From assembly GCA_963924565.1 (NCBI GenBank), contig OZ004610.1:4898001-4962000 (forward strand): 64,000 nt of DNA, in the 5' to 3' direction. Under the pieces are notes generated by a model. It saw only the letters and a list, made by a program, of their open reading frames with translations, was not told the DNA's origin and made no database searches. This document shows positions 148-54,024 of the stretch, one piece after another. The DNA is from Ascidiella aspersa. Lineage: Eukaryota. Both the position numbers and the translations under genes were made by a program. Position 1 is the stretch's first letter. Each line of letters opens with the position of its first letter.

Positions 148-3100
148 CTTGTAGAATGGAAGGTTTTCCTTTGGTTTGGTTTGTATGTTTATTAGACTTA
201 GTTGATCTTGCTTTCCAACATGCTTCAACACTGAATCTGCAAATTACGGTTTTTAGGGCGGATTTACAGTGAAGCAATGAAATCAATATTTTGGTGTCTA
301 AACTGTCTTTTACATACTCGTTTGTTCAGATTAAATAAATGAGCAAAAGGTGCTTGTTAAGCAGACATAAATATTTTACTTTAAATGGTGGACATAGCAC
401 ACACAACTTACTACAAAAAATCACTACTGTGAGGTTACATCGTAGTTTTGCAAAAATAAAAATATGTCAAACGATGACAGTCGACTTCTCTGTTAAAACA
501 GAAGCAAATTGTTAAACTGTGTTTAAATTTCGGCCCGAAACAACGAATTGGTAATTGCCGATGGGTCGTATCATGAGTCTTGAGCACCCCATCCGTCAGA
601 AATCAGTGCAGTTCTAAGCAAAAAGGTCTACGACAATCAGTGCATTCAAAGGATCAAAAAGTCCGACTTTTAGACTTTGAGGTCTTGGACAACGCACTAA
701 TTTGCATTAACAAATGTGCATAAGAAGATTAAGTTTAACAATACTTGACCCAACCAAACCCAAACGCTAACCAGCGCCCTAACCCAAATAATGTGCGATA
801 ATTTAATAATTATAACGCTTCAGGCCCCAGTACCTCAATTTGTGACGTAATAATCTTAAATACAATGGACGAGAAACCATCTTATGCCCATCCGAGTATG
901 GGCTTTTTTCCCCAGCATTTAAAGAATTATTAAAATAACGCACATTATTTGGGTTAGGATTCGGGTTAGCGTTAGGGTTTAGGTGGGTCAAGTTACCTAA
1001 AGGTCCAAATCAGTACATTGCCAGGACCTCAAGGTCTAAAAGTCTAGACTTTTCTGCCATTGGATGCCCTGATTGTCGTAGACCTTTTTGCTTAGAAATG
1101 CACTGATTTCTAACGGATCGGGTGACCTTGAGTGAGTATATGAAACAGTGCGTGTGGTATGATAAATCTGAAGTGGCTTTGTTTTCCGCTGATTATTTTT
1201 TACCGAAACCTTACCTTTGCAAGATCCATCACTTTTTTGCTTCAGATGATCAGCACTGACTAACGCCAATTGTTGTTTGCCCTGCGTTTTTAAGGTAGCT
1301 TATGATTTTTTGGCCTTAAAAGGCTAATCGAAACAAGTGCAAAAGAGAAAGCGTCTTTTAACAAGGTTTCGAATTAACCAAAAGGTTTGTTGAATGCCTT
1401 TAGGCTGATGTGCGTATTAAAAAAGTATTTCAAAATCCTGACGCTTTTCCAAAGTTTTGTCATTTTTTTTGGAGTGTAGCTTGAAAGCTATGTGTCAAGT
1501 GAAGCAGTTAAAAACATTTTGTTAATGTTAACTTTTTTTATTAGGTTGAACATGGTATCGATACTGTTTTGTTTTTGAGTTATATTAAAAAAACTGTCCA
1601 GCGTTCCAATTTTAAGTCTTCGAATGTCTTTACATTTTTTTCCTAGAACTGTTCGTCGGGCAATATGACTAAATAAAAATAAAGTTAATTATCATCCACT
1701 TACCTGGCCGTCAGTTACAGTTGTAAGGACGAATTGTGGAGTTTTTTGCAGGGGTTTGGCCTGCTGTGTCCCTCCTAAAAAGCAAAGCGCATGATGTAGA
1801 CAGATTGTATTGCGAGTTTTGAAACGAGTTTAACCGGAAATGACGTAGTGTCGCCGAACGCATTGATAAATGCAGGCCCCTATAAACTATTACTAAACAG
1901 TCACGACATTTTAGCCAACGGCTTAGCAACATGCGGTGCTAATTAAGGGAAGCATATAGCTTTACCAACAGTGTAACTAAACGCGGTGGTTAGTAGTGAA
2001 ATTACACAGTTGCCTGAAGTAAAGAGAAAGGTAATATAAAGTCCGACAGCTTTTTACCATTAAAAGCAGGGTTACCATACCGTCCTTATTTCTAAGATTT
2101 GTCCTTATTTTTAAGGGCAGGTCTTAGAAAACCTAACTGTCCTTATTTCCGACTTGTGTCCTTATTTTGTCTTATTTACAACAACCACAGAACTTTGATC
2201 GTTTTCCTCTGGTAACCGGTGTTGTATAATATTCTAAAATTATGCTTTTGTGCCGAGATTTTATGACATTATAAATGAAAAGGTGCTTCCGCGGCGTACA
2301 AGTCTCAGGATTTTACTTCTAAGTGGTGAGATAAGTAGGGCAGTGGTACAGCAGTTTTGGCTGCTCTACCAGGATACAGCAGCTGACGACATTTTAGCAA
2401 TAAACAGCAGTACAAGGTTACTGCTGTTTAGGCTGCTGCATAATGGGTGCGGCGAAGGCAGCATTGTTTGCAAAGAGGTTGGTAATTGGGAAATGGATGC
2501 GCAGTGCAATCGACACTTCGATTAAATAAGTAAAGCTATGAGCAGGGGTGGTGAACACTTCAATCGCGACCCACCGCTTGATCGCCACATTTCACCTGGT
2601 CGATCGCGTTATTTGTCGAATTTTTAAAATAGCCGTCAAGCAATACTAACAGGAGTAGACCAAAAACCAAACAATAAACCTTGATAAATTGCTGGAGCAA
2701 ATTTTTTTTTTTTTTAAACGTTTTTTAAATGCTAATCTAATTTTTCGGTTGTCCTTATTTTTGTGTCCATGTCGATGGCAACCCTGATTAAAAGTTATGT
2801 AACAAAGGCGATTGTAAAGTGGGCAGATAGTATTTCAAGACAAGGTATCCTTACAAGATGATTCCTTTTGCGAGACCTTATTATTGTTTTTACTAGGTTG
2901 AAAGCAGACTTGGAAAACTAGACTTATTTCAGCTTTTCAAAATTAGATTAGAATTAGAGCATTTCAGTGCTTTCGAAGTTAGATTAGAATTACCGAATTC
3001 TTCAAAACCAAAATTTAAACTAAAATTACATTTAATTATTCATAATCAATTTAATTTAAATTGTAATAAGAATGTGAATGCTTATTATTTGTTGCATAAT

Positions 3101-6100
3101 TTCGATAAGTAATAGCATAGCATATTCTTTTCAGAATGTAAAAATCAACTACCAGTCGATCCAACCAAACAGTATTTATTCGAATTCTTTGTTTCGACTA
3201 GGAGACCAAAAATGCCGTTGGACAAAGTAGCATTTTTTGTTAAATCCGAATTAGATTAAAACTAAAATTACGAGCACACAAGCAATTTAAAAACTAGATC
3301 AGAATTAGAATTAGCTGCATTTTTCACTAATTCATTGAATTAGAATACTATAACCACCCGGTTGGATTTGTTGTAGACGTTTGTAGCGCTCAAGTTAGGA
3401 TAATTCGGGGCTTTGAAGCGTCTGTGTTAGAACATGTGTTAGAAATTTTATGCTTCAAGCGAATTGTGTTATAACTGGATACAGGTGAACAAGAATGCGC
3501 ACACTAATCATGGTTTGGTATGAAAAATGATAACCAGGAACAGCATTATTAACCAGTACAGCAAACGTGTATAATTAAATAGATTTCCTAAACCGAAAAA
3601 TAAAGCCATTCCCAACGTAATCGTACTTATGTTGAATTAACAATGCTTTAGAAACAATAAAAGTCTTTAATCTACTATTATTAACCGGGTAAAATATTAT
3701 TAACCGGGTAAACTACTGCTATTAACCGGGTAAAATTTTAAACATTTATAATATACTAAACTGTAAGATAAAAAATCTGTAGTCTGCATCGCTTGGCAAC
3801 GTTTCGTTATGGATGATTAGTCTGCACATTCGCTGTTCACCTGTATCCAGTTATAACACAGTCCGCTTGAAGCGTAAAATTTCTAACACATGTTCTAACA
3901 CAGACGCTTCAAAGCCCCGACTTATCCTTTAACTTGAGCGCTACAAACGTCTACAACAAATCCAACCGGGTGCTATCTAGTTGTCAAAAGTCTGGTTGAA
4001 AGACTATAAATTATATCGTCTAACTCTGTGGGCTGATATTGTTATGTGAAAAAAGCAAATGGACCAATAAACAAAGTCGTTTCAGCAAATTCAATTCAAA
4101 ATACCAAAAAGCGATTACAATAAGGAGTTAAAAATCTCTACCCACCAGTGGTGGTAATACCCTTGGATTTGGCGCTTTGGCAAAATTTACCTTGAGTTTT
4201 TTCCAGTTTAACTTGCACCGGTTTGTTGATACTGACTCCGGCGCCAAGCAGAGCTGTTTGCAGTGCCTTGAGGGAAACCAGCTGCTGCTGAGATAAGCCT
4301 TTTACCACTTTTCCTTCGGTCTGGCGAAACAAATATTTGAACAGTTAACGCGCCAGTGGTTCACAATATGTTGAACGCACGCAGTAACAGTTGTACGCTA
4401 AAGGTTTCCAGGTACGAGGGCAGCTTTCGGTTCCTAAGCGGACTTGCGTAAAGTTACAGCAAGTGTTATTATAGTACGGCTGCTGTAAGTAACATTAGCT
4501 CGTTGTCAAATTCATTCTACATATAAATAGTCTTCGGCTGGCAATGGAGGCGATATTTTATTAATATACTTTTGGCTTTACTATTAGTAAGTTAATTTAA
4601 TTGAAGTGTTTTCTTCTAAAACCAGGAGGTAGACCGCGGCAGAAAACTTATTTGGTGGTTACGGCCAGAAAAGATTAAAAACCACTACTTTACGTGATAC
4701 CTGATACGGATGACTGATATGTAGCGTTTTAAAAAGTCGATACGCTAGTATTTTTACATGGGCATGGCTTTGCTGGACAGAGAATCAGGATAATTGCATG
4801 GCCACAATGGGTTTGAAGCGTGTGTGACCTAAACACCAAATATTTGTGTCTAGGTTAAGTGTTTCAAAGAGCATTGTGGCTCGTCAACGCTCACAGGGAA
4901 CGTATGTGTTTTTGCTTTGTATAAACACAAGTCTGGAAATCAAATATTTGGATAATGGGGCGTTTTATGTTTGTCAAAAGTGTTCTATAATTTCTTGTTT
5001 ATTAGTTGGATCTCCTTAATGTGACAGGTTACCGCTTAGGACAGCAAAATGCGAATGTTTAGTCTAATTTTATTAAATTTGCAAGAGACACTTTACGACA
5101 TTTTGTAAATCTATTTTAATGGCGACCAGCAAAACCTGTTTTAACCTGCAAAACATGTCAAAACCATCAAAATCGAAAAAAAAACGTACTTTGAAAACAA
5201 CACTTTTGACACAAAAACAGCAGACGTGATGACTGAAGGGTGTAGTACTGTAGTATAGTGGTTCTCAAACTTTTTTTTCACGCCTTTGAAAAAGTTTGTT
5301 GTACTTTCTTGACAAACTCGGAAATGAAAATTTTATTAATTTTTACTAAAACTCGTACGCTAAAGCCAATTATTATTTGTTCGTTTAGAAAAATCAGATT
5401 TGGTTTTGCGTAATACTAAGTTCGAATGCAATTTTAATAATATCTGCAAGCATTTTATTACCGCCATAACGTTTAGAGTTAGAAACTGTTACGTTTTCAC
5501 TGACACATTAATAACCTAAATCGGTTAATTGTCATCAGCCAAATCTCAGAGTTCTTATTATCATTAGGTTTTTTTTCAAATAGATCAATAGGGTCTTAGA
5601 TTAGCGCGTTCTAGCTTTTACATAATCAAATGTTTTTATTGGTGGCATAAAAGTATTATTTCATGATGTAGTGACTTGCCTGTGTTCAACACGTTTGTGT
5701 TCACTGTGTTACCAATTTAACCGTTGGCTTATAATTTACACTGGTGATTCGTAATATGACCCTTCCATTTCTTTTGTGTTAATATTTACCGGCCTTTCTT
5801 ACAATGGACGCTTTAAGATATTTCTCGCGTGACGCCAAAAGTGACCGTCTGGCGACGGGTTACAGTAGCGGTTTCCAAACTTTTCTAAATATTTTGCCTG
5901 GTGGCCCCGTTGCAATTATTTTGATAATTCGCGGCCCTATAAAACTCAAGGGTCAGTTGACCCATGTTTCTTGTACACTAGTGCGGTTACGAGTCTCTCT
6001 AATGTAACAACTTTCTGACTAATGCGAACGATTCGCTGAAAGAAGGTAGTACAACATAATAGATGCTCTATGATGTCAAGAGACATCATAAAACACGCTT

Positions 6101-9100
6101 TATTATAGAATAATAAAGTATAACTAAAGACTAATAATAATGAGAGATAATGTTTAAAAGACAGACTAATGTTTAAAAACATTCGCTAAAGCCTAATGTT
6201 AAAAAACTTAAAGACTAATGCGCCTTGCGGACGCTCCGAAACTATTGTACGGACCTAAGTTTGGAAACAGCTGGGTTGCACATAGACGTTTAAAATACTT
6301 GGCTAACTGACGGACGATTGAAATTATTGTTTGTAACAGTTATATTTTGTGTATATAAGCGTAAAAGCAGTTGGTTTTGCTCAGCCGTTAGACGGCAGAC
6401 GCCGTAATAGGCGGTCTGGCTCGCTCACATTAAGTTTAAAACAAATATATGTTAATTGCTGCTATTTGATAACGTTTAAATTCACATTGTAGTGTAAACG
6501 GGCTTTTAGGCATAAGGCCCACTAAACAAGTCATGGTAAGGCATAACATAAACGAAACGAAATCAGTTAGCTCTTGGAAAAATTAACCGACGAACCAGGG
6601 CGTCGCGATGCACATTTGGATAAACTCTGGTGTAAAACATTTTTACGACTTATCATTATGATGGCAACCGACAGCACTAGAGATAGACCGATATATCGGT
6701 TTACCAATAATATCGGCCGATATTTTGCTTCTACCGATATATCGGTATCGGTAGATGTAGGCCGATACTTTGACCGATATTTTAGGACGAAAATATAATA
6801 TAATTTTTCCTGACAACAAACAACTTACCCATTTTTGATATAAAAAAAATTGGTTTTAGCATCACGCCAAGTTAATATGCAAAATAATAGTTTAATAATT
6901 AATCAATAAAGGTATATATAAAAGCGTCATTTGGACATTTTCAATCAATTCAAGTTTTGAACATTTCCGAGGTACATAAAAAAATCGTTATGGTATCTAT
7001 CGGGTTGACAAAATTGTAAAAAATCGTTTATCGGTATCGGTCCAAAAAAGTGATATCGATCGACCGCACCAAGGCACACTTCGAAAAAAAAACTCGGCCC
7101 TCCAGACACTTACTTTCGTTTTAACGGTGGCCGCTGGCAGCTGGTAGGGCTTTGCCGACTGATGCTTGTCGCTGACCAGAACCAAGCCCTGTTTCGTGTT
7201 CTTGACGATGAAGGATTTCGGTTGCGCGGTATGAGGGTGATTTGAGCCAAGCAATGGCCGACCTGCCGTTGGCACAATTGAGCTCGTGCCTAGAAAACAC
7301 GTTGACGTTTAGTGGAAAAGATCAGAGAATGTGTACAACTTTTACCAAGCGCGGTCGTTGCTATTTGAAACGTTTCAAAGTTAGAAGCTTCAGGTCGAGT
7401 CAGAAACGTTTCAGTTAATTTGATATCGGATCGGCCACGATACCAGCCTAGTATCGGACAACTATCGATACTACCGCTCGTTGTGTATCGGCCCTGCACC
7501 TATATTTTCGGACATTCTACATAATATTAAAGAAAATCATGTTTATCATTTGAAACGTTTAAATAATTTTATTAAGTTTGTCCCAAAATGTCGATCGAAT
7601 GAGTTATAAGGTTATGTAAGTGGTCGAATCGGGAGCTGGAAAGGTCATTTCGCAAACAGTTTCAATATTTTTACCCAAGGGCGCATATATTACTGCTGAG
7701 GCTAAACACCGGCAAACTAGCTGCGAAAAACAGGTCGTTAGAAAATATTTACCGTTGCTCGAAACGCCAGAGCTGTTCAGCAGAGTGGTCGATACAATCT
7801 TCTGACTAAGTGGGTCGGACGACGACCTTCTTTTTTCCGGCAAACTCAGTTTAATCTGTTTTTCCGGCACCACGCTAAGCACGACGCTGCCTGGCGAAAG
7901 CTGCAACTGGCGTTTACGGGGGCTGGCGCTTGAAAGCTGGACAGCAGACGACTGTCCGGCCCCGGGAATTGATATCCGCTTCAAAACAGTGTAGTTTTGC
8001 CCGACCTGTGCGCCCAACTTGGCTGCTTCACCAGCGGACGACTGCGAGCGACCGCGAAGTACGACAACCTGTTGTTTGGAGCCTCCACCACCGCGTTGCA
8101 GTACAACCAGCTTGCCACTGCTGTCGGCCGACTGCGCGATCACGGAGCCGCTGTCGGCCGACACCGACCTCGGGCGACCAGCGTCGGCCGTCGCGCCTGT
8201 TGTTGCGCCTTTGGACGTCAGCGGTTTTGGACTGGCAGTCAGTATCACGCAAGTTTTGGAGCGCACCGGCGTGCCTGGCAGTGATAGGGACTTGGCGGGT
8301 GTGCCTGTTGGAGTTACGACGCCGCTGTTACTGCTACTGCTGTTGTTTGTGGTGTTTGTGGTCGGTGGTGTATTTTGGGAGGCGGCTTGGGTGGCGTGAG
8401 GTGATTGCGATTCGCTCGCTTCGGTGTTTGTTGCGTCTAAAGGCGCCCCGAGCTCGACTTTGACCTCTTTCGGCGAAGGTTGTGGCGTATCGCTGAAAAG
8501 GTAAATAGCAGTTTAGCGTTTAAGTCAGTGCAACGTATGTGTATGTAATCGCCTATCAGTTCTGCTGCGTGCATTGCACAGTAAAATATACTGTCTGAAA
8601 AGGTTAACATCAGTTTAGCGTTTGGGCCACTATAACATAGCTCTTTTTGTGCGCTAATCAGTTGTGCTGCGTGCATTGCACAGTGAAACAGAGGTACGTT
8701 GTTTACTTGTCGACGCAAACACTAGTAGCGAAAGTAGAACAAAAATACACATGGTGAGTCAGTTGACCTTGAAGGTATATGCAAAAATATTGTCGCGAAA
8801 AATGCTTAGAACAGGTTAAGAGTATAGTGTTCATGTTTGCCTCTTACCTTTTTGAAGTTTCTGTTTCTTCTATGACTTCGTTAGCTGAAATATCATATCA
8901 GAGAGAATATATTTTATTTGCACAGCATAATATGTCTTCCGTAATAGGTTAGAACATAGGTTAAGAATGATAACACTATATATTTCATTATTTCGATTGT
9001 GAATAGAACATCACTTATTTTACATAAAATTACTAAGTTTATTAAACTTTAAAACTGTTATAGCTCGTGTCGTGGCAATCATTGTACTTGAAGCCTGCGC

Positions 9101-12100
9101 TTTGTTGTCGCGCTTTTATATATTTTGCCCTACAGTGAGCACTTGATATATTTTGGTTGATATTTTGATAGCTGTAACAACACTTTGAAAACTAACATAT
9201 TACCACCAACCTGATAAAGATACGTCATCCAATTCTTGGTCTGACAAGTCTTCTATCAAGCACTTTTTCTGATCAAGAAAAACAATGATTAACCAGTTGT
9301 TACTTAGTCCTATGCCCTACAGCCGGGATAATAGCGTAGAAGTTAGATTTGAAATGTAAAGGCAATATACAAAGAGGACTAGCAACCAGGGTGAAGGTTG
9401 TGGCAATCCTGGGCCGAGCTTGAGACCAAATATGGCGTCGGTTCGGAGTTCGATTAATTACAATCTGGTAAGGTCGGTAACTTCATACGTTAAATTACCC
9501 TTAGAAGAACGGCTATTGTTAGGCCGTCGCAAGGTAAAAAGTTAAAAACAGTTGAAAAAGATAGAGGAATAAGGCGGCACTGTATAAAGTATAACAATTT
9601 TATTGAATTCTCGTCAAGCTTTTGCACAACCGTGCTTCATCAGGTCAAAGTAAACTTTAAAGCTTTGTCGAGAATTCAATGAAATTTGTCTTTACACAGT
9701 GCCATTTTATTCCTCTATTTAGAACAGTGGTTCAAAAATTGTGGGCTCGTCGCCCAGAAGTGGCCCAGAAGTGACCATTTTAAAGTGGGCCATAGAGCTA
9801 TTTGAAAATGTTGCAACTAAATTTGTTTTGTTCTACTTAAAAAATTGTTAGTCTAAAACAATATATAGAAACGAGTTCTTTTCCATAGTTTTGGCTATTT
9901 ATGAACTATATAGGTAAAGGCAATATCTCACGAATTATGCTTTTTATTTGCTACGCAGTTAGCACGGCAGTTTACTTGAAATTCAAATTGTTGTCAAAGA
10001 GATATTTAACTTCAATCTAAAAATGAACCGGATGTAAAAAGGATTATTTGTATGTTTTAGAATCAATACATTTATTGAAGAAGTGTCCGACTATGTAGAC
10101 GTAAATTGCAGACTTTTGCTATATGTATATCAGGCAGGTTGAAATATCTTATTTAGATGAAGGTCTAAAGTGCATATCAAAAAGGTTACGGCACATGGTG
10201 GGCCACAAACTGTTTTATAAAAAAATTAGGCTACGAAATTAAAAAGTTTGGGAACCACTGATTTAGAACTAGACATACACGGCCATTTAAGACTAAAAAA
10301 GGTAAGCGCCCGTTTACGCAAACTTACAGCTTCGTGGATCCCGTTCGTATCTTCTTGATCAGCCAAAGCACAACTGTCACCCCTTCTTCGTCGTGTTTTC
10401 TTCTCACTGACGAGCGCCACTTGCGTGTCCGTCTTTTCACCTTCTGAAGGTGATTCTGGCAAACTGCCTTGTGGTTTACCATCTGTAGCCAAAGGTTAAT
10501 AAAACTTAGTTGACAACGTAAGCCAGTGGTTCTTAACCTTTTTTCTTTCGTGGCACATTTTCGTTGCACAAAAATTCTGTGGCCCCAAAATTTTTTATGA
10601 AAGAACAAACTATAAAAAAGGTTTATATCAAAAACAGCGAAACATATACCAATACATTTACATTTCATTTACATTCCTTCTCAATTCCTCCCCAAGCCAT
10701 TATTCCAGTAAAATTAGGTATAGTGACACAAATGAAACTATCCTTCAATAAATCTAGCTTTTTTAAATTGGTCTGTGACCTACTTAAACTGTTTCCTTTG
10801 CCTACCAGTGAGCCATGGCCCACTGGTTGAGAACCGCTGACATAAGTAAATACGATAAACTGTGTCGGAGGAATTATGAGAAAGGCGTTGCGTTCCATTA
10901 AGTGGTAAACTAAAAAGCACAAAGGTAAAGGCGACACCTTCTTTTCAGGAATATGAGAAAATATAAAAACAAACTAAATTTGGATATCAGTTAAAATGCT
11001 TAGCCATGCCACAATTATCCGCAAATAGGGTTATAAAGGCAAATGCAACATTTTGACTGAAATAATCATTTAAATAAAAACGGAAAAGTTAACGGCGTAA
11101 TATGCCTGTAAAGGTAAAAAACAGCTTCAGAAGGGCTCGATCACAGTTGTTAAACACGTATATGTGTGTGTATCTTTCATTGAATGCTATAGTAAAGGGT
11201 TACAATCGTTAGCATCTATAATGCCACAGCTCTATTTAATTTAAGTTAATATTTAAATACCTAAACTTGACGAGGCATCATTTGCGTTTTCTGCGACATT
11301 TTCTTCCGATTCCTGTAAAACAACATTTACGAATGTTTTCCAAAATTAATATATAAGAAGTCAAAATCAAAGTATGTTTACCATGGGTTCGGCTTGGGAG
11401 ACGCTCCCGTCAAACTCCTTTTCGTTCACATCTGCATCTGCAAAAGGATAAATAGATTTGCACGGGAAAAAGCCATCGTAGTTCAACACTGATGTGGAGT
11501 AAGTCTAACGTGGTGTAAGCCGTAATCGTTGGTCAAAAAGGGCCAGATCACAGTAATTAACACACATATGTATGTGCATGAATGATATCGTACAGTAGAT
11601 CTCCTTCAATATGAAGTTGCTTATACCTACAGTATGTAGCAAGCATTGGCGTAGGGTTGTTTCTCGACTCGCTCCTCTCTGAGCCTGTGTAGCTCAGTTG
11701 GCAGAGCGACGGTCTCGGTATGGCCGGAGGTCGTGAGTTCGAACCTCACCACAGGTTATATGTTTTTCTAGCCTGTCCTGCTTGTATCATTGATCGACAG
11801 ATTCGGTGAGTCTGCAATGGCTTTCGGTGTAGTAGTGCTGTACTTACCCGCTTTATTCTGTTTATTCTCAAGCTCCTTGTCAGAAACAGGTTGATTCAGG
11901 AAGCGATCAATTCTTAAGTCGATGGTGCTTTGGTCAAGTTCGACATTGCACACAGTCTCGGCTCCAAGCGTCTGGAGGCCGGTGTAAGTCCTAAAGAAAT
12001 AACTAAAAAGGTAAAACGTCATACGAAATTAAGAGGTTAAGTTTAAAGGAATAGGCAACTATAGGACGTGCAATTACACTCTAGTCTGCGTTTGTATGGG

Positions 12101-15100
12101 AGTAGTCGAATTTGATGAGTAGTTAGATCGGTGAGTAGTCGGGTTCGGATGTTAGGTGATTTGGGTGAGTAGGTCGGTTAGGTGAGTAAGTGGTTAAGTT
12201 AGTTGAGTAAACGAGTTATTTGACTAGTTTATTTTGTCGATTAGTTGTTAATATTTTGCACATTAGGTTTGCCATAGTACACCGAAATTATTTTATTGAA
12301 ACTACACCGAAAGTCATTGCAGACTCAACGAATTTGTCGACCAATGATGCAAACAGGCAAAGCTAGAAAAACAACTAGCCGGCAGTGAGGTTCGAACTCA
12401 CGACCATCGACAGATTCGGCGAGTCCGCGATGGCTTTCGGTGTACTAATGATTCGTAGGCCGTAATCGTTGGTCAAAAATCAGCTTCAGAAGGGCTAGAT
12501 CACAGTTGTTAACACACATATGTGTGTGCAAGTTTCATAGGTTTCCCATATTGACAAGTTATATTACCTGTCAAGCCTCAAGTTGTGAATAATGTCGACC
12601 CGACGATTTCTCGGGTCGCAAAAGTGGAGCTGACAGCGAATCGGGAATTCCCCCCAGCCTCTCCTGGTCAGATGGAACGGCGCCTCGGTGACCTCTACAA
12701 GGTCATTCGGTCTGTAGCTCGGATGAAGGAAAAACCAAACCTTACAAAAATATGTCGAACTGTTCTAACGTGCTAACAGGGCTTGCATGTTACTAAAACA
12801 ATCGTAACGACTGTTAATCCGGGGTAACACTAGACAAGTGGTTCTTAACCGGGGGTTCGCGGCACTCTAGTGTGCTATTTTAACACTCAAGGGTGCCGAG
12901 ATATATTTCAAATTATTTAGTATTCCAATTTTCGCTCTATTGGTGAGCTTCTTAAAACAATTTTTTGGGTACGATAAAACGGCCAAACATTAGAAAGGTT
13001 TTGTTCAACCTTATTGCACAGTTATTGTGCTGTTTCAATCTCATTTATTGCACCGTTACAGTTAACCATTAAGCCAAAATACGAGCAAGGGTGTCGCGAA
13101 CTATTTATAACTTCTGTAGGGTGCCGCAACCTAAAAAAGGTTGGGAAAAAAAAACTAAAAAATACGAGAAATTACCTCGTGCCCAGTTTGTAAAATAGAT
13201 CGACGGGCGCATGATTTGCGTTGACAGGATATGGCGCGCGGGCCGTATGTTGCCCATTGTGTAAACTCTGTAAAGGGTTGTGCAACCTGCCGTCCGCAGA
13301 ACGAAATATGTGGCAACAGGCAGTCTTCCGTTTTAGACCCGTGACACTCCGGGTAGTTTGAAGTCCGGTTTAAATAAAACTTCAAATCGCACTTTTAAAA
13401 AAAAAAAAAAAAAAAAAACGAACTTCCCTTATCGACCGGTACTGACTAATAAAAATGGAGAATGGACTGTAAGGTTACTACCAAGTCAGTTTAGGGTGAA
13501 TTTGGTCGATGTGAATTGCTTTTGGTACACGGTCTTATCTGCACTCTGATTAAAATCGAGCATAGCTTGGGGTAATTTCGGTAATGGTAAATTGCTATTC
13601 TTAAGTCTGGTTGTTGTTTCAATGCGAAAGAGTTGATTGTTGGAAACACCTAAAATGTTAGAATATGACGTTTTGGCTTAGAACTTTTAACGCTCAAAAG
13701 TTAAACAAAACCTTTATGTGACACGCAAAATAGATGTGATACAAAGTACGTAGGATATCTGTCAATATTAAATGCTCCTACAAACGTTGGTTACTACTTG
13801 TTGTCAATCGAACTAGTTAGTAATCGCACGATTTGTCATTTGTCGCTTTATAAGGAATCTGTTTCACAAGATATGTCAGTATCCTGATGAAGGCGTTCTG
13901 TATAGGACGTCGAAACGTCGATTGATTATATACTACTGCTCGATGAGCAACACTCGGTCATACATTATGCCTGTCAGCAATAGCTCATTTCTAGAAACGT
14001 TGCTTTAAACAAGCTATCAATCGAGTAAAACACGCTTTTTGTACACCTGCACATCGTTAGGCATTAAATGTTACATTGAACAGGGTAAACTTTAATTTAA
14101 GGTTGATACCTTTCGAACAAAGTGGTCAATCCTGGGTTCATCTTTACTGCCGCGCACATACACCATCCACTTGTGCGTCGACTTGTCATTGCCTTCCCTT
14201 TTGTCAGGCGGGATGTACTTCGACACATTTCCTACGATTACCGTCTTCTTAATTCTGTGACGGGCCCTGCGCGAGCAATATGGCATGCGTGTCAGCTGGC
14301 AGCAACGCAACATGCAAACCACATTAATCTTTCATAGTAGTCTTTAGAAAAATCGCCCGAGGCCAAAAGGCGGCGTTAATCACTGGGTTGACTATTGCCA
14401 GGCGTTGCGCCAGGATGGCGGTTTCTTACCGCAGTTTAAATGTATTAGATTATCAGCCATTACCCGATGTTACTTTGGTTGTTGTTTGCCGGTAAAGAGG
14501 TTGTAGATTTTTTCGGCGTTGCATCTTGCATTTGAGCATCGCTTGTGATGTTTTTCGTGTCATTAATTTTCGTCTCTGCACCTGCAACAGTTAATTGGTT
14601 CAGATAATATGAATTGACCTAATAAAAAAGCTTATTGAAGATTACCTGTAGCAGCATCGTTTGGGCAGGGCAGGGATTCTTCAATAAGGGCTTCATCAAC
14701 CACAGAAGCTTGGTGAAGTTCATTTACAGACTCCTTTTGATCTTTGATATTATCTACTGGAGAATTTTTGCTCAAAACTGATGTAACAGCTTTTCGCAAA
14801 ATGTTCTGAAATGTAAAATATTATCTTACATTGCCTTGGTATCAACAATTTAAAGATCAAGACATAAGTGCAGAAATAGGCTTATTACCATATGACATTC
14901 ATGCAAATAATAAGTAGTATTCAGCTTTTGTTAGTTTTCAAATTGGAACACTAGTCTATATTTTAAAGTTTTATAACATTCTTATTGTGATATAGTTGAC
15001 ACTGAATGTGTTTCACTACATGCATAGAGCTGGCCACGTTAATCATCCTTTTACCAACCTCATGAATAATTTGTTAGCCAAACCCCTAAAACCTTTTAAA

Positions 15101-21602: not shown

Positions 21603-24600
21603 TCATAGAAATGTCCCTGTTGTTTCAGCATGGGAGAACCTTGACGATAAACCAGCTGATTGTTTCATCATTCTTTTCTTTGCTGCTTCGTCAAATCTGT
21701 TTACCTATTTGAAAATTTTAATTATATAATTAATAAACTTGAATAAAGTACAAATACAATATCTATTTTAAAATAAATGTATATACAAAGGGAGCAGTGG
21801 TACCCAAACTTATTGGGCACCTTCCATGAAATGTAAATGTTTTTTTGCGGCACCCTTACTGCAATATTTCAAGTGGGTAACTGTGATGTCACAATAAACT
21901 TTCTTTGAACGTTACATGCTAACTGTACAACATAGAAAAACTATTTTGCTTTGTTTCACTCGTAATATTAGAGTACCAATGTAATATTAGAGTATCAATA
22001 GGGCCGACAATTAAAAGTGTTTTCTGAACTTTTAAACTCTCAGCAATTGCATTTGTTCAGTTAAATTACATTTATAAGGCAGGTAGTAAATGGCAATAAA
22101 TATGCTGTGACTAACAGGCATAGTACATAAAGAAAATAGGTTCTCTCTGGCATTCATTTGTTTATATGACGTTTCTGCTACCTTTCTAGGATACCTTATC
22201 AGGGAATGAAACTAAAACCACACAAAGTAAAAAGACACAAAAAAGAAATAAAAAAGTGCCAAATAATGTTTAAAAATGGGCATTGTCGCTCTTAGCGCAT
22301 TTTTATCTCCTTTTTGTGAGTCCCTGACGAAGGCTTTCTAAATAGGAAGCCGAAACGCACGATAAACAAATAAATACCAAAAGAACTTATTTTCAAGGTA
22401 GTAAATGACAAGTTTATAATTAAATTAAAACTAGAAAAAATAAAAACCTGAAGATCGGTGTCACGATCGAACGGACGCCTAACAGGGCCGTCTTTGCTCT
22501 CTTCCTTTAACTTTCGTTTTCTTGACTTTTCATGAAGAGACATAAGAGATTCTGCTTCTACTCCATCCTAATAAACAGTATGATATAGAGATCAATAAAG
22601 CATATGAAATATATGTAATAATATATCAAACCCAATAAGGAGAACATTATTGTTGATTGCTTGGTTTGTTATCATTTAAATCACTAACATAGCCAATAAG
22701 GTTGGAAATCACACATTCGCAGATCTGTTTTTGCCCTAAGTGTCAAGTGACTTTATATGTGCGATTCCATAACCACAAAGGTGGCATAAATTACATTTGT
22801 GCATATTTTCAACATAAAGTAAGTTTCGGTCTTTTTTAAAAGTAAACATTTACTTTGAAATTTGAATAATACTTTGTTGGTTGCATGATAACATTTAAAT
22901 AACACAAATTTCACTGAACAATGTAGCAACCAGTTTTAGAAATACTAGCATTTACATGTATGTTGCCTTATCACCACTGCTCTCGTATTCAACTAACATT
23001 TCCCTATTCAATATTAGATTTTTGTTCCACATCACACAAAGTTGTAACTGCTATAATAAATATCCCATGTTGTTCACATGGAAGTACTATTGGCCTTACC
23101 TCGTATTTTGAAATTTGCTGCGCAATTGCAGTGTCCCTTTCTTGGACATACTTTTCAGAAGGATCAATTTCAACTTTAGTAGGTTTTTTACTGGCCTAGA
23201 GAAAATTACCAAATTAAAACAGATTACCTCACACCAGATGTAATTCAAATCCAAGATTAAAATTAATTTTGTACATTTTTGCAAACATTTTTGCAAACAT
23301 TTGAAAGAGTGCTAAAGAATAACACAAGTACAGTAAAAGTACCTTATGGTCATCGGATCAAGCTGCCCATCAAAACTAAATTAGTTTAGTGGCAATGTTC
23401 AAAGTAACACTAATTGGAAATAAAAAGTGCATAGATAAACAACATATAGATTCTAACGGTTAAAACAAATTTTAGAAGAACAAAAATGACAAAGCAGTGG
23501 AAAAATTAGCTAAGCGCTAGGATAAATATATGCATTAAGGTTACGTACTGTAGGATTTTTTTAAATCTGTACGGCTGTAATTAGCAATAAAAGTTAAATC
23601 GGAACAAACCCGCTTGAGCTTATCCTCTGGTGTGTCTGTCCACACAGACCTGTCTCCAATCTGCGTTGGGTTTGCTTTAAACGCCCGTGGACCCATTCCA
23701 AAGCCCTATAAAGATCCTTGATTAGTTAGTTTTTGACCGCAAATGCTACAGAACTATAGATAGACCAATATACCGGTTTATCAATAATATCGGCCAATAT
23801 TTGGCTTCTACAGATATTTTGGTATCAGTAAATGTAGGCTGATACTTTGGCCGATATTTTAATATGATATAATTGTTACTGTACAATAAACAAATTTTTT
23901 TTCCCATTTTTGACCAAAAATTTTCTGTTTTAGCATCACGCTAAGTTAATATGCAAAATAATAGTTTATAAATGAATAGAGGTATATAATGTAAAATGGT
24001 ATTTCGATTTTATTTTCAATTAATTTAAGTTTTGAAGATTTCCCAGGTATATAAAAACTCAGGTATCGGTTAGCTAAATTTAAAAAAAATCGGGTATCGG
24101 TCTCAAAAAGTGATATCGGTCCATCTCTATACAGAAGTACGAATTACCTGAAGCACAGGGGGCAATTCTGTCATCCATTCCTCTCGTTCAAGCTTCTTAG
24201 GTTTTCCTTTGCCAGTTAGATTATCTTTCATTCTTTTAGATCTGTGTTCATGGAAATATAAGTTGGCTCAATAGTGAAAACCAGTAACTATGGGCCAGGC
24301 TACATATCAGTCAACTTATAAAGGAATGACTTGAAAGCCTATTTTTTTTCGTGGAAAAAATTTCCAAAATAAATAGGCGCCATAAAAAATGCTGTCATTT
24401 ATAAATCAAATAGCAATCTTCGACCACCTATTCCGGCAATCTTCTTCATGGCAATATTATTGCAAATATAGGCAAAAAAGATATATATTATACGTGACAA
24501 ACAATAAAGGAAAAAACACTGGACCTTGTTCTAAAGCATGAGGCAAAAAAAATCGAGATAAACACCCTTCCAAATTATAATTTATCTTTTTCGGTAAAAA

Positions 24601-31034: not shown

Positions 31035-33397
31035 CTATAAACAATGAAAAAACGCTTACATTAAAAAAACATGCAGTGTTTTACCATTATTTTCACGCTG
31101 ATACAGAGTATGATTTTGTTGCATACTGGAGATAATCTGTAGTACCTGTTTTAGCCTATGTGATAAATATTTTGTGGCTCAAATTTATTCCATAACCAGC
31201 ATGTTAAAAATTATGATAAAAATTACCGAATAAACGTTGTCCTGAGATGTTTCATATTTTGATCACTTTAGGTTTTAAAACAGCGCAAAATTTGAACATG
31301 ATATAACTCCACTCTGTAAAACATAAGTCGAAAACTTATGTTCTGTAAAACATAAGTCGAAACTGTTCGATTTAATTCGACGTTCTGTTTCAAAGTGACT
31401 TGTTTACTGCATAGGACACTACTTACTGCTACTCTTAGCGGGTTCGATATCATTATATATCTAAATCATATTGACGATCCGAAGAATGTTTTTCGAAAAT
31501 ATACGAGTTTATATTCCCAACACTAGACGGCGATAAAGATTAACAAACACACGTCTAACTCGGTCCACATGTTTCGTGTTATTCATTGAATCATTGGGTT
31601 TTACTAATCAGAAAACCCGGTAATCGAATAACTCTATTCATAAATTGCCTTCGGTTTTGAGTTATATATTTCGAAAATTTCGATGAAAATGATGACCAAA
31701 CGTTCGAAACGTTCAAAATGCTACCTACTTCTTTATGGGCTTTTTGATATTCTTACTACGTCTTACTACAACCTCCAACCATTATGCTTCGAAGTGTTTA
31801 TTGTGGTAATCATTTTTATCGAAATTTTAATCTTAGTACAATAAAAACGACTTTGCTTTGTTTATTCTTTGGAATGGCGGTTTAACGGTGCACTCCAGCA
31901 AAGGAAACGCCAATACTTTGTTGCGCCTAGAACTTAAATTCGCCGAGTCATGTACACCAACATTTTACTAAATTACTCAATCAAAAAGCTTCAGATGCCA
32001 AAAATACAAAAGATTTCTCGAAAAGCATTCAAGTCTTTCAACGTCATTATTTATTCAGCAGAGTTAAGGTCTGACGATAGTAAGGCGACGACCATATAAA
32101 ATCAACTAAGTTCGATAATAATTTTATGCCACTGGATTTCCATACCTATTTAATTCATTAGTAAGTGCGTAAAGAAAACTTTAAAAATGTGTGACAAACT
32201 ATTTTTGTCTACCGTGTTATAAATTTAATATATAAACTCTTGCTACCGGGAATCGTAATAAACAATTGAAACTAGCAGAGGAGCTGTTTTTGATTTAGTA
32301 TTAATATTTGTCCGTATGTCAATAGTCCACTTTTACCAGCATCAGGTGTTTCCACATCAAATATTGACAAACATTCTGCCCCAATACATATTTAACAAAG
32401 CCCTCAAAAAATAGTCCAGTCAACTCGATACAGTGGGTATGTAAACATAGAGAGGTTGCTAATGATTTACATTTTTTATGTTGAAAACCGATGTTAAAAA
32501 AAAGAAAGAAGTATGTTGACAACAACATTAACGTTTAAAGCTTCCCATGTAAGAACCTATTTTAAAAAGGTGAGTTTCTCTGTTAAAGTACCATGTTTAC
32601 ACCTAGAACGATGTGAACTTTTTCGCCATTTGATATCGCCGCATCTATAGTGTTTGTTGGCAACATGCAAGCCGCCGTGTTTCGCGACGCCTGTTTGTGT
32701 TTTGCCAGAGATAGATAGAGAGAGAGAGAGAGATCCTTGTTTTCGGCGATGAGCGGCGACGCTCTCTCTACTTAACGGAAAGCGAACAAAGGGTTAGCAC
32801 TCGGGAGTTGCTGCTCCCCTTTTAATGCTTGTAGTCTGGCGCTGGTCATGTGACGAGGTAGCATTCGACGTAAACAAGTCTAGAAAAACAGCCAGCCGCC
32901 CAGCGCCGTGTTACCGCGCTACACGGCCGCGCGCAAATGGCTGGGTCTTTTTCGGCGAGAAACAGCCAGCCTCGCATAGTGGTGCGGCAGCGATATGGCA
33001 CCTCTTTCGGCATCAGTCATTCATTAATATTTTATTTCTATCGCGTGACGGCAAGTTTATAGAGCTTTGCCTGCTGCGAAATTCGCCACAAGGCGGCTCC
33101 GAACCACGGCGATTATATTGTTTTTTGTTGTTGTTTTTTTTGTTGTTGTTGTCGTCGGTTGAAGAGAAACCGACGCCACGAAATTCCCGGTTGCCGAGTT
33201 CGACACTTATCCCGAGTGACGCACGTTGTTATCGCTTTATGACGAAGACAAGCGCCCGGAAAACTATTTACGCCAAAAGCGTATATCCTTACGTATACCA
33301 TATACGCATAAAAATTCGACGCCAGATTTAACGATTGCGCTGAACACGACATCAGGGGTAAAGCAACACCAGCTAGTTTTACGAATACCCTCTGGTC

Positions 33398-33578
33398 GTA
33401 ATTTCAATAAAAATACCAAAGCCATAATATTCGATAAAATCGACATTTCGCAATTTACAGACGTTTCAGCAATAACTAATGCCATCTAACACTGGTGATG
33501 GTATTGCTGAAACGTTTGTAAATTGCGAAATGTAGATTTTATCGAATATTATGGCTTTGATATTTTTATTGAAATTAC
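33398..33578. mobile_element. Foldback element with 77-bp inverted arms
   Basis: 33398-33474 vs 33502-33578 near-perfect inverted repeat; CCTCTGGTCGT direct repeat at 33389 and 33602. Confidence 0.8.
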
Positions 33579-33786
33579 TACAAAAACCCGTATATTGTGT
33601 TCCTCTGGTCGTGTAATGGCATGTTAGAAGGACGAAAGGTGTAATGACCGGGATTGTCCAACTCAGGGTGAAAGGCGCATTGAAGCGATGCTGCCAAACC
33701 TGAATATTTCACGACAACCGCATCCGTCCTGAAAAACAACAGCTACCAATTTAAAAGGTGACGAGAGCGCCTTTGATCTTATGCAA

Positions 33787-41175: not shown

Positions 41176-44100
41176 TCAGCGGCTCAAAGCGTCAAAGGTC
41201 ATGTCGGTGTAGTCGCTTCCGAGATCAGCGGCGGGCGTACTCTGCTTGAGAACGATGCGCGGCGTAGACGGGGTGTTCTTTGAAGATGTAACTGTGACGA
41301 CGTAAGGGGAGTTGGCCTGCTGCTGCTGCTGGGCCTTGCTGAAGTCTATGTTGACGTATTCCCCTCCTGGGGAAAGGGGAGGCCGGGCGTCAGCTGCGGT
41401 GCTGGAGCTGTTGTTGGAGGCGGTAGGCGGCGACGCGGCCGGGATCACGATGCGCGTCGATTCGAGACTCGGTTTCTTGCTGTGCTTGAGTGAGAAACTG
41501 CGCTTTGCGATGGTGTTACTGATCGGGTGATGGTTTAGGCCGCGAAGGGTCTTGGGACGCTTTGACTTATGCTTGGGACGGTCAAGCGAGTTGGTGGAGA
41601 AGCTGCGCTCCTTACGTTGGTGCGGGTACTTGGCCGACTGCTCGCCTTCCACGGCGCCGTTTAACAGCGGGCCGACGACAGTGGCGCGTCGGCCGTTGGC
41701 GCCGTTCGAAGAAAGGTTGCTGGAGCCGCTACCGACGCCGCTGCCGCCAACCGGGCTCATGGGTAAGTAGCCGTCCTTAAAGAATGCCTCGGAGTCGGGC
41801 GGGGATGAGGAAGCGTTTACTTTTGACACGACGTGTGCGCTCAGTTCGCGCAGTTCTTGGTTAAGTGGCCGCATGCTCAGATAGTCGGTTGAGTTAGAGG
41901 GACTGGGCGTTGAGAGGCGTGACGCGCTGTCAAGGGGCGTGGCTAGCAGAGGGTTGCCGCCCAACGTCGACACCGAGCTCTGGCTGCCCGGGGACGAGTC
42001 AGGAACGTCGCAGCCTTCGTTAGCGGCTGACAACTTTAGGTGGCAGTTGTAGTGTGGCGAGGAGGGCTGGATGCGTTGTGCGTAGCGCGAGTCAAAGTGT
42101 TCGCACGCGCCCGTCTTTACCGGGAACTCATAGGCGCAGTGGCATTTTTCAGGCGAGTGACTGTAAAGCCCGTTAAGCATGGAGCCGTTTCTCGGAGCGA
42201 CCGACGCGTCCGGCACCGAACGCCGACGCTTCTCAATGTCTTGCGGCATCGACTTGAACGCCCGCATCGGCACGTAGCCAGTACAGTTGGGAGCGTTGCA
42301 AGTTGCTTTCGGGGCGACGGTCTCCGGACCGGCCGCGGGTAAAGATACTGACATGATCGTGTACTCGGAAAGATTGGCATTGGTCGATGATGACGACGAT
42401 GATGACGTCACACTGGTGGCGAAGGAGGCGAGCCGAGCCAGGATGTTGGTGGATGACGGGGGAGTCGAAGACGGTTTGCTGCGCGCGCCACTGGAGGTGT
42501 TTATTTGGTGCGGATACCTGTGGATTGCGAATCATTGCTTTATTGCCATTTATCGCTTTTGGTATCTGTAGCCTTTTAAAAGCTTGCCCGAAAGTTATTT
42601 TAATACAAAAAATTTTGGGGCATAATGGTTGGAGGTTGTAGTAAGACGTAATAAGAATATCAAAGCCCATAGAGGAGTAGGTTCCATTTTGAACGTTTCG
42701 AATAATCATCGAAAAATGAATGAAGAGTTATTCAATACGATCAAAATGATACCTACTTCTGTATGGGCTTTAATATCCTTATTTATACGAAAAACAATTT
42801 TTTTTAACGTACTGGTGATTAGTTCACACCTAGTTGTAAATTTTCAGGGTTGTCTATCATCCGCGTGAAACCGTTAACCAATTTAAGTGTTTAATAGTCG
42901 TAATCTATTTCTACGTGCAAAAAATCGTTCCCTTATCCTACCGCGATACTTAAACGTGTCTTGTGTGTTCGCGGAAAATTTCGCAGAGAATAATCAAGTG
43001 ATTACCTGTTAGAGGCGTCAAAGTCCATCAGCGCGTAATCGTCAGGCGACGGTGAAAGGCAGTCGTTGGCGAGGACTTGGGCCAGCACTCCCTTAGGCGA
43101 GGCGGTTGGAAACGAACCGCTCTCGGACGTAAAGGAGTACTGTGAGGGCGATTGGCCGTAAGATTCACTGTGCTTTACTCCACGATCGACCGAATGGCAT
43201 ATATGCTCAGGGTGGTGGAGAAAGTGCGTGTGTTGCTGCGGGGAAGCTGACAAGGACGAGGCTGCCGTGCTGTTGCAGCTCAGACTATCATCCAAGGAGT
43301 GAGTCCGGGAATGGATGGGTACATTGACGTAGTCGTTCACTGGATGACTCACGGAGGAAGCGTTTGAAGAGGAGGTTAAAGGGTTGGAAGGGGGCTGCTC
43401 ATTGGGCGGGGGTGGAGCGGCGAATACGCGCTGGTGGCAGTAGTACTGCTCCGAGTTACCTTGCTGAGGCAGGTGGATTAAACAGTTGGGGCAGACCTTG
43501 CCAGGGGGCGTGTCCTCGTGTATGGGTGGGGTCGAGCAGGATGAGTTGAACACCTCAGGCGTGCTGCACCTTCCCGACTGCTGCTGTATATGCGATTTGC
43601 CGATGCGAGGCGGCGGCGGTGCGGTGTTTTTGTGGTTGGTCACCTGCATATAGCCGTTGGTGGGGCTGTGATGGCCGTCGGGGCCGTATTCGTCGGCGGT
43701 GTCGGAACCAGCGGGCGGCGCGCCGTTTGTACACATCGTGTAGCCGGATGAGAAGTCGCTGCTTGAGTTAAGCGCAGAGTTGAGCTGTTCTGTGCTGGAA
43801 GTTTCGCTCGAACTGTGGGAGGTGCCGGTTAATGATGCGCTGTGGCCGTGTGAGATAGAGCGGTGCTGGTTTTTCTTGCCGAACAAGCGATTTCTCATTC
43901 CCGGGCTGATAGAGCCGTTGGGCGAGCGCACGCTGTAGAACTTGTTGGGACGACGCATCGTGCCTTCTCCTTCACTCCCTGTGCGTAAACGAGAGTCCTG
44001 GGCGCCGACTCCGTGCGAGCCTGGCAGGCTGTCGCAGCGCATACGCTTGCTGGTAATGGTGTGCACTTTGCCCATGCCTATTTGGCTAGGCGGCGGGTTG

Positions 44101-52659: not shown

Positions 52660-54024
52660 AGCAAAAAAGCTGATAAACTTATAAATATAATTACTAATGT
52701 ATACAGACAAAACTGATCTAGTAAGTCATCTGTAAATATTGCAAAATATTTAAAGAAAATGTTTTTTATTGACAGCCACAGCCCATTGAAAAACTACCTA
52801 ACATAACTTATTGAATAAAAAGTTAAAATAGCTATTTATACAAGACTGCATCCTAAAAATGTCACTAAATATATTACATAAACAAGGGAAATATTTCAGA
52901 CTGTTACATTGATTACCTATGTGTAACTTACTGTATTCAAACTGCACAAAAAGTATCAGTAGGTACTCAATAAAAGGCAAAATCCATACTTAATGACAAG
53001 GTCAACATGTAACAGGGTTCGGCCTAAAAGTCCATAAACAACAACTTATATGTAAAATCATACTACGATAACATCATAACGTTATATTCAATTCAAATCT
53101 TAACCTTACTAGCTGTCTAAAACTAAACAGCCAACATTCACCCAAAGTGTGATTGGCAATGTAAAATCCAGTCTGGAGTGCTTAACCAGCTGGTTGTGAC
53201 TGGTAATTATGGATGTGACCTTCGATTGAAGAAAACAGATACCTATATCTTATCTAACACACGTTTTTTATTTTAATTACCCTACTACTACTATTCTTTC
53301 AAGCATCATTTTACAACATTTTCACTAAATAATATATTACAGTTTGTACTACAGCTACTTAACCTCCCGCACACACACACGTGTTAACACAATTTAACTT
53401 TTTTATCGAAAGGTACAACATTACAACTCGCCGCTTGACTGGGCAAAAGTAAACCTTAACACTAAAGAGAAAAACAATCACAAAACGGAGACCCGGCATC
53501 ATCGGAGCATCAAACACTAAATATATTCCAACAAACAACAATCTATACGCTGATTATGCTTTGCGGGGTGGCAGCCTTTCTTTACTGCGCAAATCGATTC
53601 CCTACGGGCGGAGAAAAAAGGGCTGGAGCAAATGGCTCTCTTGCGAAGCGCTTTTATTCCGCTTTTCTCGGCCGATGTGGGTACTGATTTGATGTTTACT
53701 TCGCTGTTTTTCCCCTGACCTTGTTATTCATCGAAGGAACGATGAGCAACCATCACGCCTCGGTCTGTCACTGTTTTGAGACGTCGACGGTTCGTGATTT
53801 CATCAGATCGTAAAACAACATAGACAAGTCCACGTCAACTGACGATTCGTCAGCTGTTGAAGTACTTCCAGAGTTTTGTACCGTCACTTGAACGGTCGAG
53901 ATGGTGACGTTTTGTGTACAGAGACGTCGAGAGAAATTAAACCTTACGTCAAGCTGCTTTAGGTGTATTTTTATTAGGTTGTTTTGAAGACAAGCGTGTT
54001 TACAAGGGTTACTGGTGATTTGCG

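Follow-up and report, generated by a model that had tools for sequence, protein, structure and literature searches.

A minimal hammerhead ribozyme motif in a truncated Penelope-like element end within a YEATS2 intron of Ascidiella aspersa

The window that we analysed, a 64,000-nt stretch of the genome of the ascidian Ascidiella aspersa, contains a YEATS2 gene on its minus strand, and one intron of this gene, with GT and AG ends read from the sequence, holds a short repeat inserted 118 nt from the splice donor (Table 1). The intron splits the YEATS domain, with PF03366 matching both flanking exons (E 9e-18 and 9e-4), and the exon downstream matches human YEATS2 in the PDB at E 3e-30 as against E 8e-9 for YEATS4. 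RNA reads over the exons come from one strand, which fits a minus-strand gene if the library is of the usual type, and no spliced read was listed across the intron. Two further features were noted nearby: a tRNA-like sequence in the YEATS2 gene region (11683-11757, plus strand; Rfam tRNA, 52 bits, long anticodon loop), possibly the head of a tRNA-derived SINE, and, in the next YEATS2 intron, a very high-copy short repeat (12454-12527), with a DNA depth of ~1,600 compared to <10 for unique sequence.

Table 1. Coordinates of the YEATS2 insertion, its hammerhead and the other hammerhead-bearing fragments; positions are those of the window.
Feature	Position	Strand	Basis or remark
YEATS2 intron holding the insertion	12741-14109	-	GT/AG ends read from sequence
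5'-truncated pseudo-LTR (3' end), Penelope/Poseidon-type PLE, family A	13815-13991	+	177 nt, dispersed repeat
Minimal type I hammerhead	13881-13922	+	sequence, descriptor and Markov control, pair counts, published consensus
Stem I 5' arm ATC	13881-13883	+	sequence
Catalytic box CTGATGA	13884-13890	+	sequence
Extra unpaired A between CUGAUGA and stem II	13891	+	sequence
Stem II arms GGCGTTCT / AGGACGTC	13892-13899 / 13904-13911	+	sequence
GAAA box	13912-13915	+	sequence
C-G-T-C after GAAA	13916-13919	+	sequence
Stem I 3' arm GAT	13920-13922	+	3 pairs with ATC
Opening 25 nt of the element ORF	13967-13991	+	likely start codon 13967; copies end here
Damaged Neptune-type family F pLTR fragment	9561-9652	-	motif 9643; GAAA to AAAA (G12 lost)
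Inverted partial copy of family F fragment	9659-9724	+	
Inverted partner of family D fragment	22095-22212	-	core also damaged
Damaged family D pLTR fragment	22315-22393	+	ACGU-H changed to ACGCA; motif at 22324; alignment
Family G head-to-head damaged pLTR pair	58086-58260	58086-58192 (-), 58215-58260 (+)	

Inside the insertion lies a minimal type I hammerhead in which, as read from the sequence, 15/15 core positions are intact. Its stem II has 8 pairs, 2 of them G-U, with a GTAT loop (GUAU in RNA), and is closed by G13892-C13911, equivalent to G10.1-C11.1; GAAA is followed by C-G-U-C and therefore yields a palindrome ACGU at 13915-13918 (A15.1-C-G-U16.1) with no loop III. The predicted cut after C13919, equivalent to C17, is placed correctly. 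The initial annotation, which had read a hammerhead at 13876-13926, named the same cut and all of the parts (CUGAUGA, GAAA, an 8-bp stem II, the ACGU palindrome and a short stem I), and these are indeed present, but it left the unpaired A13891 unmentioned. A longer stem I, in which UCA and UGA pair past a bulge, occurs in the fold of this copy but was rejected as not conserved among copies, positions 4-6 being paired in 14/44, 21/44 and 10/44 rows. The intron being on the minus strand and the motif on the plus strand, the copy is antisense to YEATS2, as had been proposed; the antisense strand of the motif contains no core.

This architecture, compared at the level of sequence, equals the minimal hammerhead (min-HHR) consensus NNN CUGANGAH G..C GAAAN palindrome NUH NNN given in the available text of Cervera and De la Pena (2014, PMC4209133), where min-HHRs of Penelope-like elements (PLEs) are described as having a long helix II, a short helix I, an unpaired base between positions 9 and 10.1, and G10.1-C11.1. 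Motifs from Ciona and Oikopleura are included in the supplement of that study, and the Ciona intestinalis motif in its available part matches the copy at 13881 in its CUGAUGAA start, GUAU loop and CG palindrome. Compared to these published motifs, ours comes from a different ascidian, has different stem sequences and only 3 conserved pairs in stem I, and can be linked directly to a PLE ORF, whereas the alignment does not mark its Ciona row with the PLE asterisk (PMC4209133, available part). Our literature searches listed no paper on ascidian-specific PLE hammerheads, and the supplements of PMC4209133 and of a 2026 preprint (bioRxiv 10.64898/2026.07.22.740005) may list more ascidian elements.

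A hammerhead search, proposed in the initial annotation as a check, succeeded by one route and not by another. Our min-HHR descriptor matched 13881-13922 as the sole site on both strands of the window and gave 0 matches in 100 simulated 64-kb sequences (third-order Markov), but an Rfam covariance-model scan of the window reported no hammerhead family at E<=1, returning only the tRNA-like match and miRNA models that fit long hairpins. Genome-wide (308.6 Mb searched), the pattern CTGAYGAAG-N14-26-CGAAACGTC had 376 matches compared to 0 for the reversed control. Folding of the 51-nt monomer gave a weak z of -1.9, and its minimum-energy structure is a rod in which the core UGAUG pairs with CGUCG and no catalytic junction forms, so that folding energy alone is no argument for activity; two monomer rods, at -29.2 kcal/mol, are much more stable than a double-hammerhead fold at -18.3. 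The silent Rfam scan and the weak folding score are what would be expected of a chance match to a short motif, but the simulations, the genome-wide counts and the fixed place of the motif in a PLE pseudo-LTR (pLTR) leave this explanation a negligible probability.

The insertion starts at the 12th base past the stop codon of its parent element, contains no endonuclease coding sequence and is 84% identical over 177 nt to a tandem unit in locus L036. A genome search that used 231 nt spanning the motif as query returned at least 48 matches (40 of 462 candidates scored), most of which, among those listed, cover 13815-13991 and end at a common 3' position; the best other copies are 90-92% identical, and similar copies number in the hundreds. 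Members of this family, here called family A, share their 3' end, vary at their 5' ends and often have a head-to-head inverted partner. The flank search suggested in the initial annotation established the proposed link to Penelope-like retroelements, as longer copies extend upstream into a GIY-YIG frame and then into reverse transcriptase (RT), identifying the insertion as a truncated PLE end.

A parent element at C9:12.543-12.549 Mb is organised as pLTR-ORF-pLTR-ORF-pLTR with a 2,553-bp period, and the frames in L036 and L038 encode RT followed by a C-terminal GIY-YIG domain and are frameshifted. Judged by eye from translations, the family A endonuclease has a CCHH motif and a CxxC between GIY and YIG, with no CX2-5CxxC Zn-finger linker upstream; the parent's sequence motifs place it in the Penelope/Poseidon type, a call that follows the criteria in the available text of PMC8557442 (Craig et al. 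2021). Pfam matches to family A frames fall below the gathering score (GIY-YIG E 0.001 and 0.0035, RVT_1 E 0.004), with 3/6 frames matching nothing in Pfam, and a PDB search with the RT-endonuclease frame found nothing at E<=1. A family A frame is 40% identical over 290 aa to an open family E frame; this family E frame in turn finds 1,324 homologues at E<=1e-50, which carry PF00078/PF28514/PF26215. The window itself contained no PLE coding remnants at E<=0.01 when searched with family A, E, F and G proteins. In the tandem at L036, two inner hammerheads (5029-5200 and 7582-7750, minus strand) read AAAA, having lost G12, and GAAA is kept in the outermost 3' hammerhead only.

At the 3' end, the ATG matching 13967 continues in the tandem parent into the N-terminal frame of the next unit. 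Family A copies end about +24 to +27 inside the ORF, and loose ends of DNA reads accumulate at L038:3378/3379 (+26/+27; 149 and 277 reads), from which we infer that 13967-13991 corresponds to an internal start site of reverse transcription. DNA depth, counted at 85% identity and including family B reads, is ~740 on the pLTR vs ~6-12 over the N-terminal and early RT regions, and there are thus many stubs and few long copies. No convincing target-site duplication was found at 13815-13991; CTAG at 13813-13816 and 13991-13994 was not accepted, because it overlaps both element ends and because 9/9 reads from another study differ at base 13993.

These features resemble those reported for PAc of Anolis carolinensis, in which reverse transcription starts inside the ORF start and whose hammerhead cleaves only with the protein and is dispensable for insertion in vitro (Frangieh et al. 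2024, PMC11167929, available text). PAc, or Penelope/Poseidon elements generally, and the parent described here have in common an RT followed by GIY-YIG, a CxxC between the boxes and no Zn-finger linker, and PAc and the parent further share partial tandems, a hammerhead at the pLTR-ORF junction and insertions ending in the ORF start. They differ in detail: our parent has its predicted cut 48 nt ahead of the likely start codon, compared to 26 nt after the ATG in PAc, and copies end at about +25 here, whereas reverse transcription of PAc starts at +111 to +118 (PMC11167929, available text).

The initial annotation had also named retrozymes. In a rival reading, the 177-nt unit would be one monomer of a non-LTR retrozyme, that is, of a class of short tandem repeats that do not code for protein, are expressed as circular RNA and are moved in trans. 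Its length is near the 150-450 bp range of retrozymes (PMC7229834, available text), retrozymes and this unit alike are short, non-coding and equipped with a type I hammerhead whose helix III is palindromic, and the available text of the 2026 preprint derives animal retrozymes from PLE pLTRs (bioRxiv 10.64898/2026.07.22.740005). Yet retrozymes are defined by their tandem arrangement in the available texts of Cervera and de la Pena (2020, PMC7229834) and of the preprint, and we found no tandem repeat at the 13815-13991 site and no short same-strand arrays among the 48 listed matches or the first 100/376 pattern places. The 177-nt unit is moreover not bounded by the cleavage site, and the copies, with their variable 5' ends, run continuously into GIY-YIG and RT frames of coding PLEs. 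We consider the retrozyme reading very improbable and take the unit to be a truncated PLE end.

Turning to the genome as a whole, we identified at least seven hammerhead-bearing families (A-G), in agreement with the initial suggestion that several ribozyme-bearing mobile families populate it. The 376 pattern matches sort into families A, B and C plus D-like motifs; PLE coding sequence stands upstream in some copies of families A, B and C, and the hammerheads of families A, B, C, E, F and G lie downstream of PLE coding frames. Families A-D have a common tail starting ATG-CCT-GG, soon past which the copies end. Across families whose proteins are 26-66% identical and which span two PLE clades, the catalytic boxes, the G10.1-C11.1 pair and the U-H site recur. 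The predicted covariation of stem II among genomic copies was found in stems I and II between families: in 44 distinct A-D motifs, 84.5% of stem cells are paired vs 73.2% after shuffling, 8/11 pairs change on both sides, and 0/500 shuffles reach the observed paired-cell share or covariation score, with slid controls at 25-41% paired. Two of the five measures lie within the shuffle range (78/500 and 210/500), and the rows were picked by a pattern fixing core and stem length, their changes reflecting about four lineages.

Several observations were made alongside this survey. In families A-D, a purine-rich motif ending GAAGA recurs 15-30 nt past the cut site and before the ATG, despite differing surrounding sequence. 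Family E includes, in L134 (G000:C3:7032500-7039500), an open 815-aa RT and GIY-YIG frame at 2864-5308 (minus strand), the longest among 150 places scored, which stands between two identical hammerhead cores, overlaps the upstream ribozyme and has its first Met 25 codons in. A further hammerhead design, with a CUGAAGA box and a shorter stem II, occurs at L039:5650-5710 (minus strand). Positions 1-25 of the window are the inverted tail of a family B PLE stub that starts 28 nt before the window and whose hammerhead core (L037:9931-9981, minus strand) looks intact.

Three other motifs in the window, at 9615-9643, 22324-22360 and 58151-58256, had been described as relatives with different, covarying stems II. 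All three belong to real hammerhead-bearing families, but all three copies are damaged, and those at 9615-9643 and 58151-58256 represent separate Neptune-type designs (families F and G) and are therefore not covariants of family A. The remaining motif belongs to family D; searching for this family gave 277 candidates (40 scored), no PLE coding match was found in 15 + 16 partly overlapping loci, and a PLE origin is inferred because family D has the ATG tail of families A-C. The presence of families D, F and G behind these motifs upholds the broader expectation of several families.

Family F combines a 6-bp stem I, a 4-bp stem II and the palindrome AGCU; its core has 390 exact genome matches (control 0), and endonuclease frames lie upstream in 4/30 loci, with L169 also containing RT and L168/L169 a CxxxxCxxC linker. 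Family G combines an 8-bp stem I and a 3-bp stem II with a (UA)n helix III region; its core has 184 exact genome matches (control 0), Neptune-type coding frames lie upstream in 3/30 loci, and in the pair at 58151-58256 both arms contain a stem II mismatch (hairpin z -12). Both families resemble Neptune-type PLEs in their CX2-5CxxC linker between RT and GIY-YIG and their 3'-end hammerhead (Craig et al. 2021, PMC8557442, available text), a likeness that concerns the 9.6 and 58.2 kb sites and not 13881. Earlier readings, which took 58151-58256 and 9561-9718 for MITE-like hairpins and family F for a short RNA whose 5' end is fixed, were dropped because in unbiased pattern samples the 5' ends and the spacing varied and Neptune-type frames lay upstream. 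At L187:1490-1550, as at further family G loci, the helix III region consists of a variable (UA)n run and stands beside the 8-bp stem I; the part of the 2014 alignment available to us has no (UA)n run and includes Drosophila rows with a short UAUAU form (PMC4209133). Twice, at C2:28621540-28621612 and C2:28629601-28629673 (G000), two family F cores lie 46 nt apart on the same strand, a tiny tandem from which a double hammerhead in cis could arise.

Returning to the copy in YEATS2, its core is whole, as the phrase "intact-looking" had implied, but this is not special: an intact core occurs in 27/44 copies and, because 9/16 copies fetched regardless of ribozyme also keep it, intactness does not set this site apart. 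In these unselected copies, the core differs from the majority at 11/240 positions (4.6%) vs 123/1910 (6.4%) for the flanks, and so decays about as fast as they do. The 13815-13991 copy itself differs from the family majority at 2/42 ribozyme positions vs 18/135 elsewhere, part of which is a subfamily difference.

A search across sequencing runs listed no RNA dataset with a match, and we examined transcription in one raw RNA run bearing the same species label, of which 6% was read at low depth. Over the motif, the host-gene strand had a depth of 3.06 and the ribozyme strand one of 0.04. The reads there carry letters of other copies, no pile-up of read ends was listed at the predicted cut, and no back-joint occurred among the joints listed. 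In the same partial run, a near-full-length copy had no depth over 3542-4932 and about equal pLTR depth on both strands, with 81% of the pLTR reads running into unrelated sequence. A contig from a second sample and reads from a separate study also contain the 3' junction of the insertion, which is thus shared by more than one animal. None of four runs listed a joint corresponding to an empty site, a weak test given that single-copy depth was <10 in the raw DNA run and that a contig hole falls at the 5' flank.

These data bear on the idea that the host co-opted this PLE copy, so that its ribozyme would cut an antisense transcript across YEATS2 and tune the gene. The intact core, the fully paired stem II, the recurrence of the junction elsewhere and the lack of a listed empty-site joint are compatible with it, but intact cores are common even among unselected copies, there is almost no RNA on the ribozyme strand, no partner copy lies nearby and, in vitro, a lone min-HHR did not cleave (PMC4209133, available text), leaving co-option only a very slim chance. 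The available text of the same study reports no cleavage of min-HHR monomers and weak cleavage of dimers, and notes that most copies are single and probably derive from truncated PLEs, while some occur in pairs on opposite strands, separated by 100-700 bp (PMC4209133). Facing against its host gene, the 13881 hammerhead is likely silent at this site.

Taken together, the 13881 hammerhead is real and lies within a truncated Penelope/Poseidon-type pLTR, a new copy of a known motif class and ordinary mobile DNA of the kind described in 2014; with high confidence, we read the insertion as a 177-nt PLE leftover with a minimal hammerhead in its pLTR, lying against YEATS2 in an intron and likely inert. 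According to this model, the element's protein would have nicked AT-rich DNA, reverse transcription would have begun at the ORF-internal site on a tandem transcript, and synthesis would have ended after 177 nt, leaving the pLTR as the sole part copied. In tandem RNA of the parent, cleavage after C17 would require a double hammerhead or the help of the element's protein, and would trim the ends of units; at 13815-13991, with no cis partner and with YEATS2 pre-mRNA carrying the reverse complement, the hammerhead would not cut.

Whether the parents' ribozymes work is a separate matter, and one reading takes the hammerhead shape to be catalytically dead even in them and retained in the pLTR for a structural or protein-binding role. 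Consistent with this, the core is paired to the cleavage-site strand in the monomer folds predicted for families A-E, the inner two of the three hammerheads in tandem L036 are without G12, and, in the available text on PAc, mutating the ribozyme left insertion in vitro unaffected and the cut site was without RNA-seq ends (PMC11167929). The boxes, the G10.1-C11.1 pair and the U-H site have nevertheless been kept across divergent families of two PLE clades, and the PAc hammerhead cleaved with protein present, core mutants losing cleavage (PMC11167929, available text), which makes a dead shape unlikely; this reading is about the ribozyme of the parent and does not conflict with a PLE origin of the YEATS2 copy.

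A speculative model, which we hold to be improbable as it stands, is that Poseidon-type hammerheads carry a built-in off switch that the element's protein would open, beside a free-running design in family G. For families A-E, folding predicts that UGAUG is paired to the cleavage-site strand in the monomer; the element's protein, bound near the start of reverse transcription ~70 nt downstream, would open this pairing; in Neptune-type family G, the (UA)n helix III could close in the monomer. The predicted monomer folds of families F and G contain no such pairing between core and cleavage strand. Alternatively, the pairing may, in these fold models, be a by-product of the preferred GUC site. If an off switch exists, protein-gated and free-running designs would stand side by side in one genome, with the open frame of L134 available for tests. 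The predicted pairing involves 13885-13889 and 13916-13920 in the window and recurs in folds of L007, L043, L041, L096 and L134.

The 13881 site matters little in itself, being one of several hundred decaying PLE ends, but the genome offers a convenient test set for what PLE hammerheads do, with at least seven families from two PLE clades, different hammerhead designs and several long coding frames. For annotation, Rfam misses such motifs, which should be masked as PLE repeats and not recorded as host ribozymes. Elsewhere in the window, four long inverted-repeat elements (33395-33581, 58630-58819, 42612-42783 and 31703-31797), matched by Rfam miRNA models as hairpins only, are probably MITE-like repeats. 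An insulin receptor substrate-like gene with long exons occupies 41176-44675 and 52216-52725 on the minus strand, its best named match being Ciona intestinalis IRS1-like (E 1e-92).
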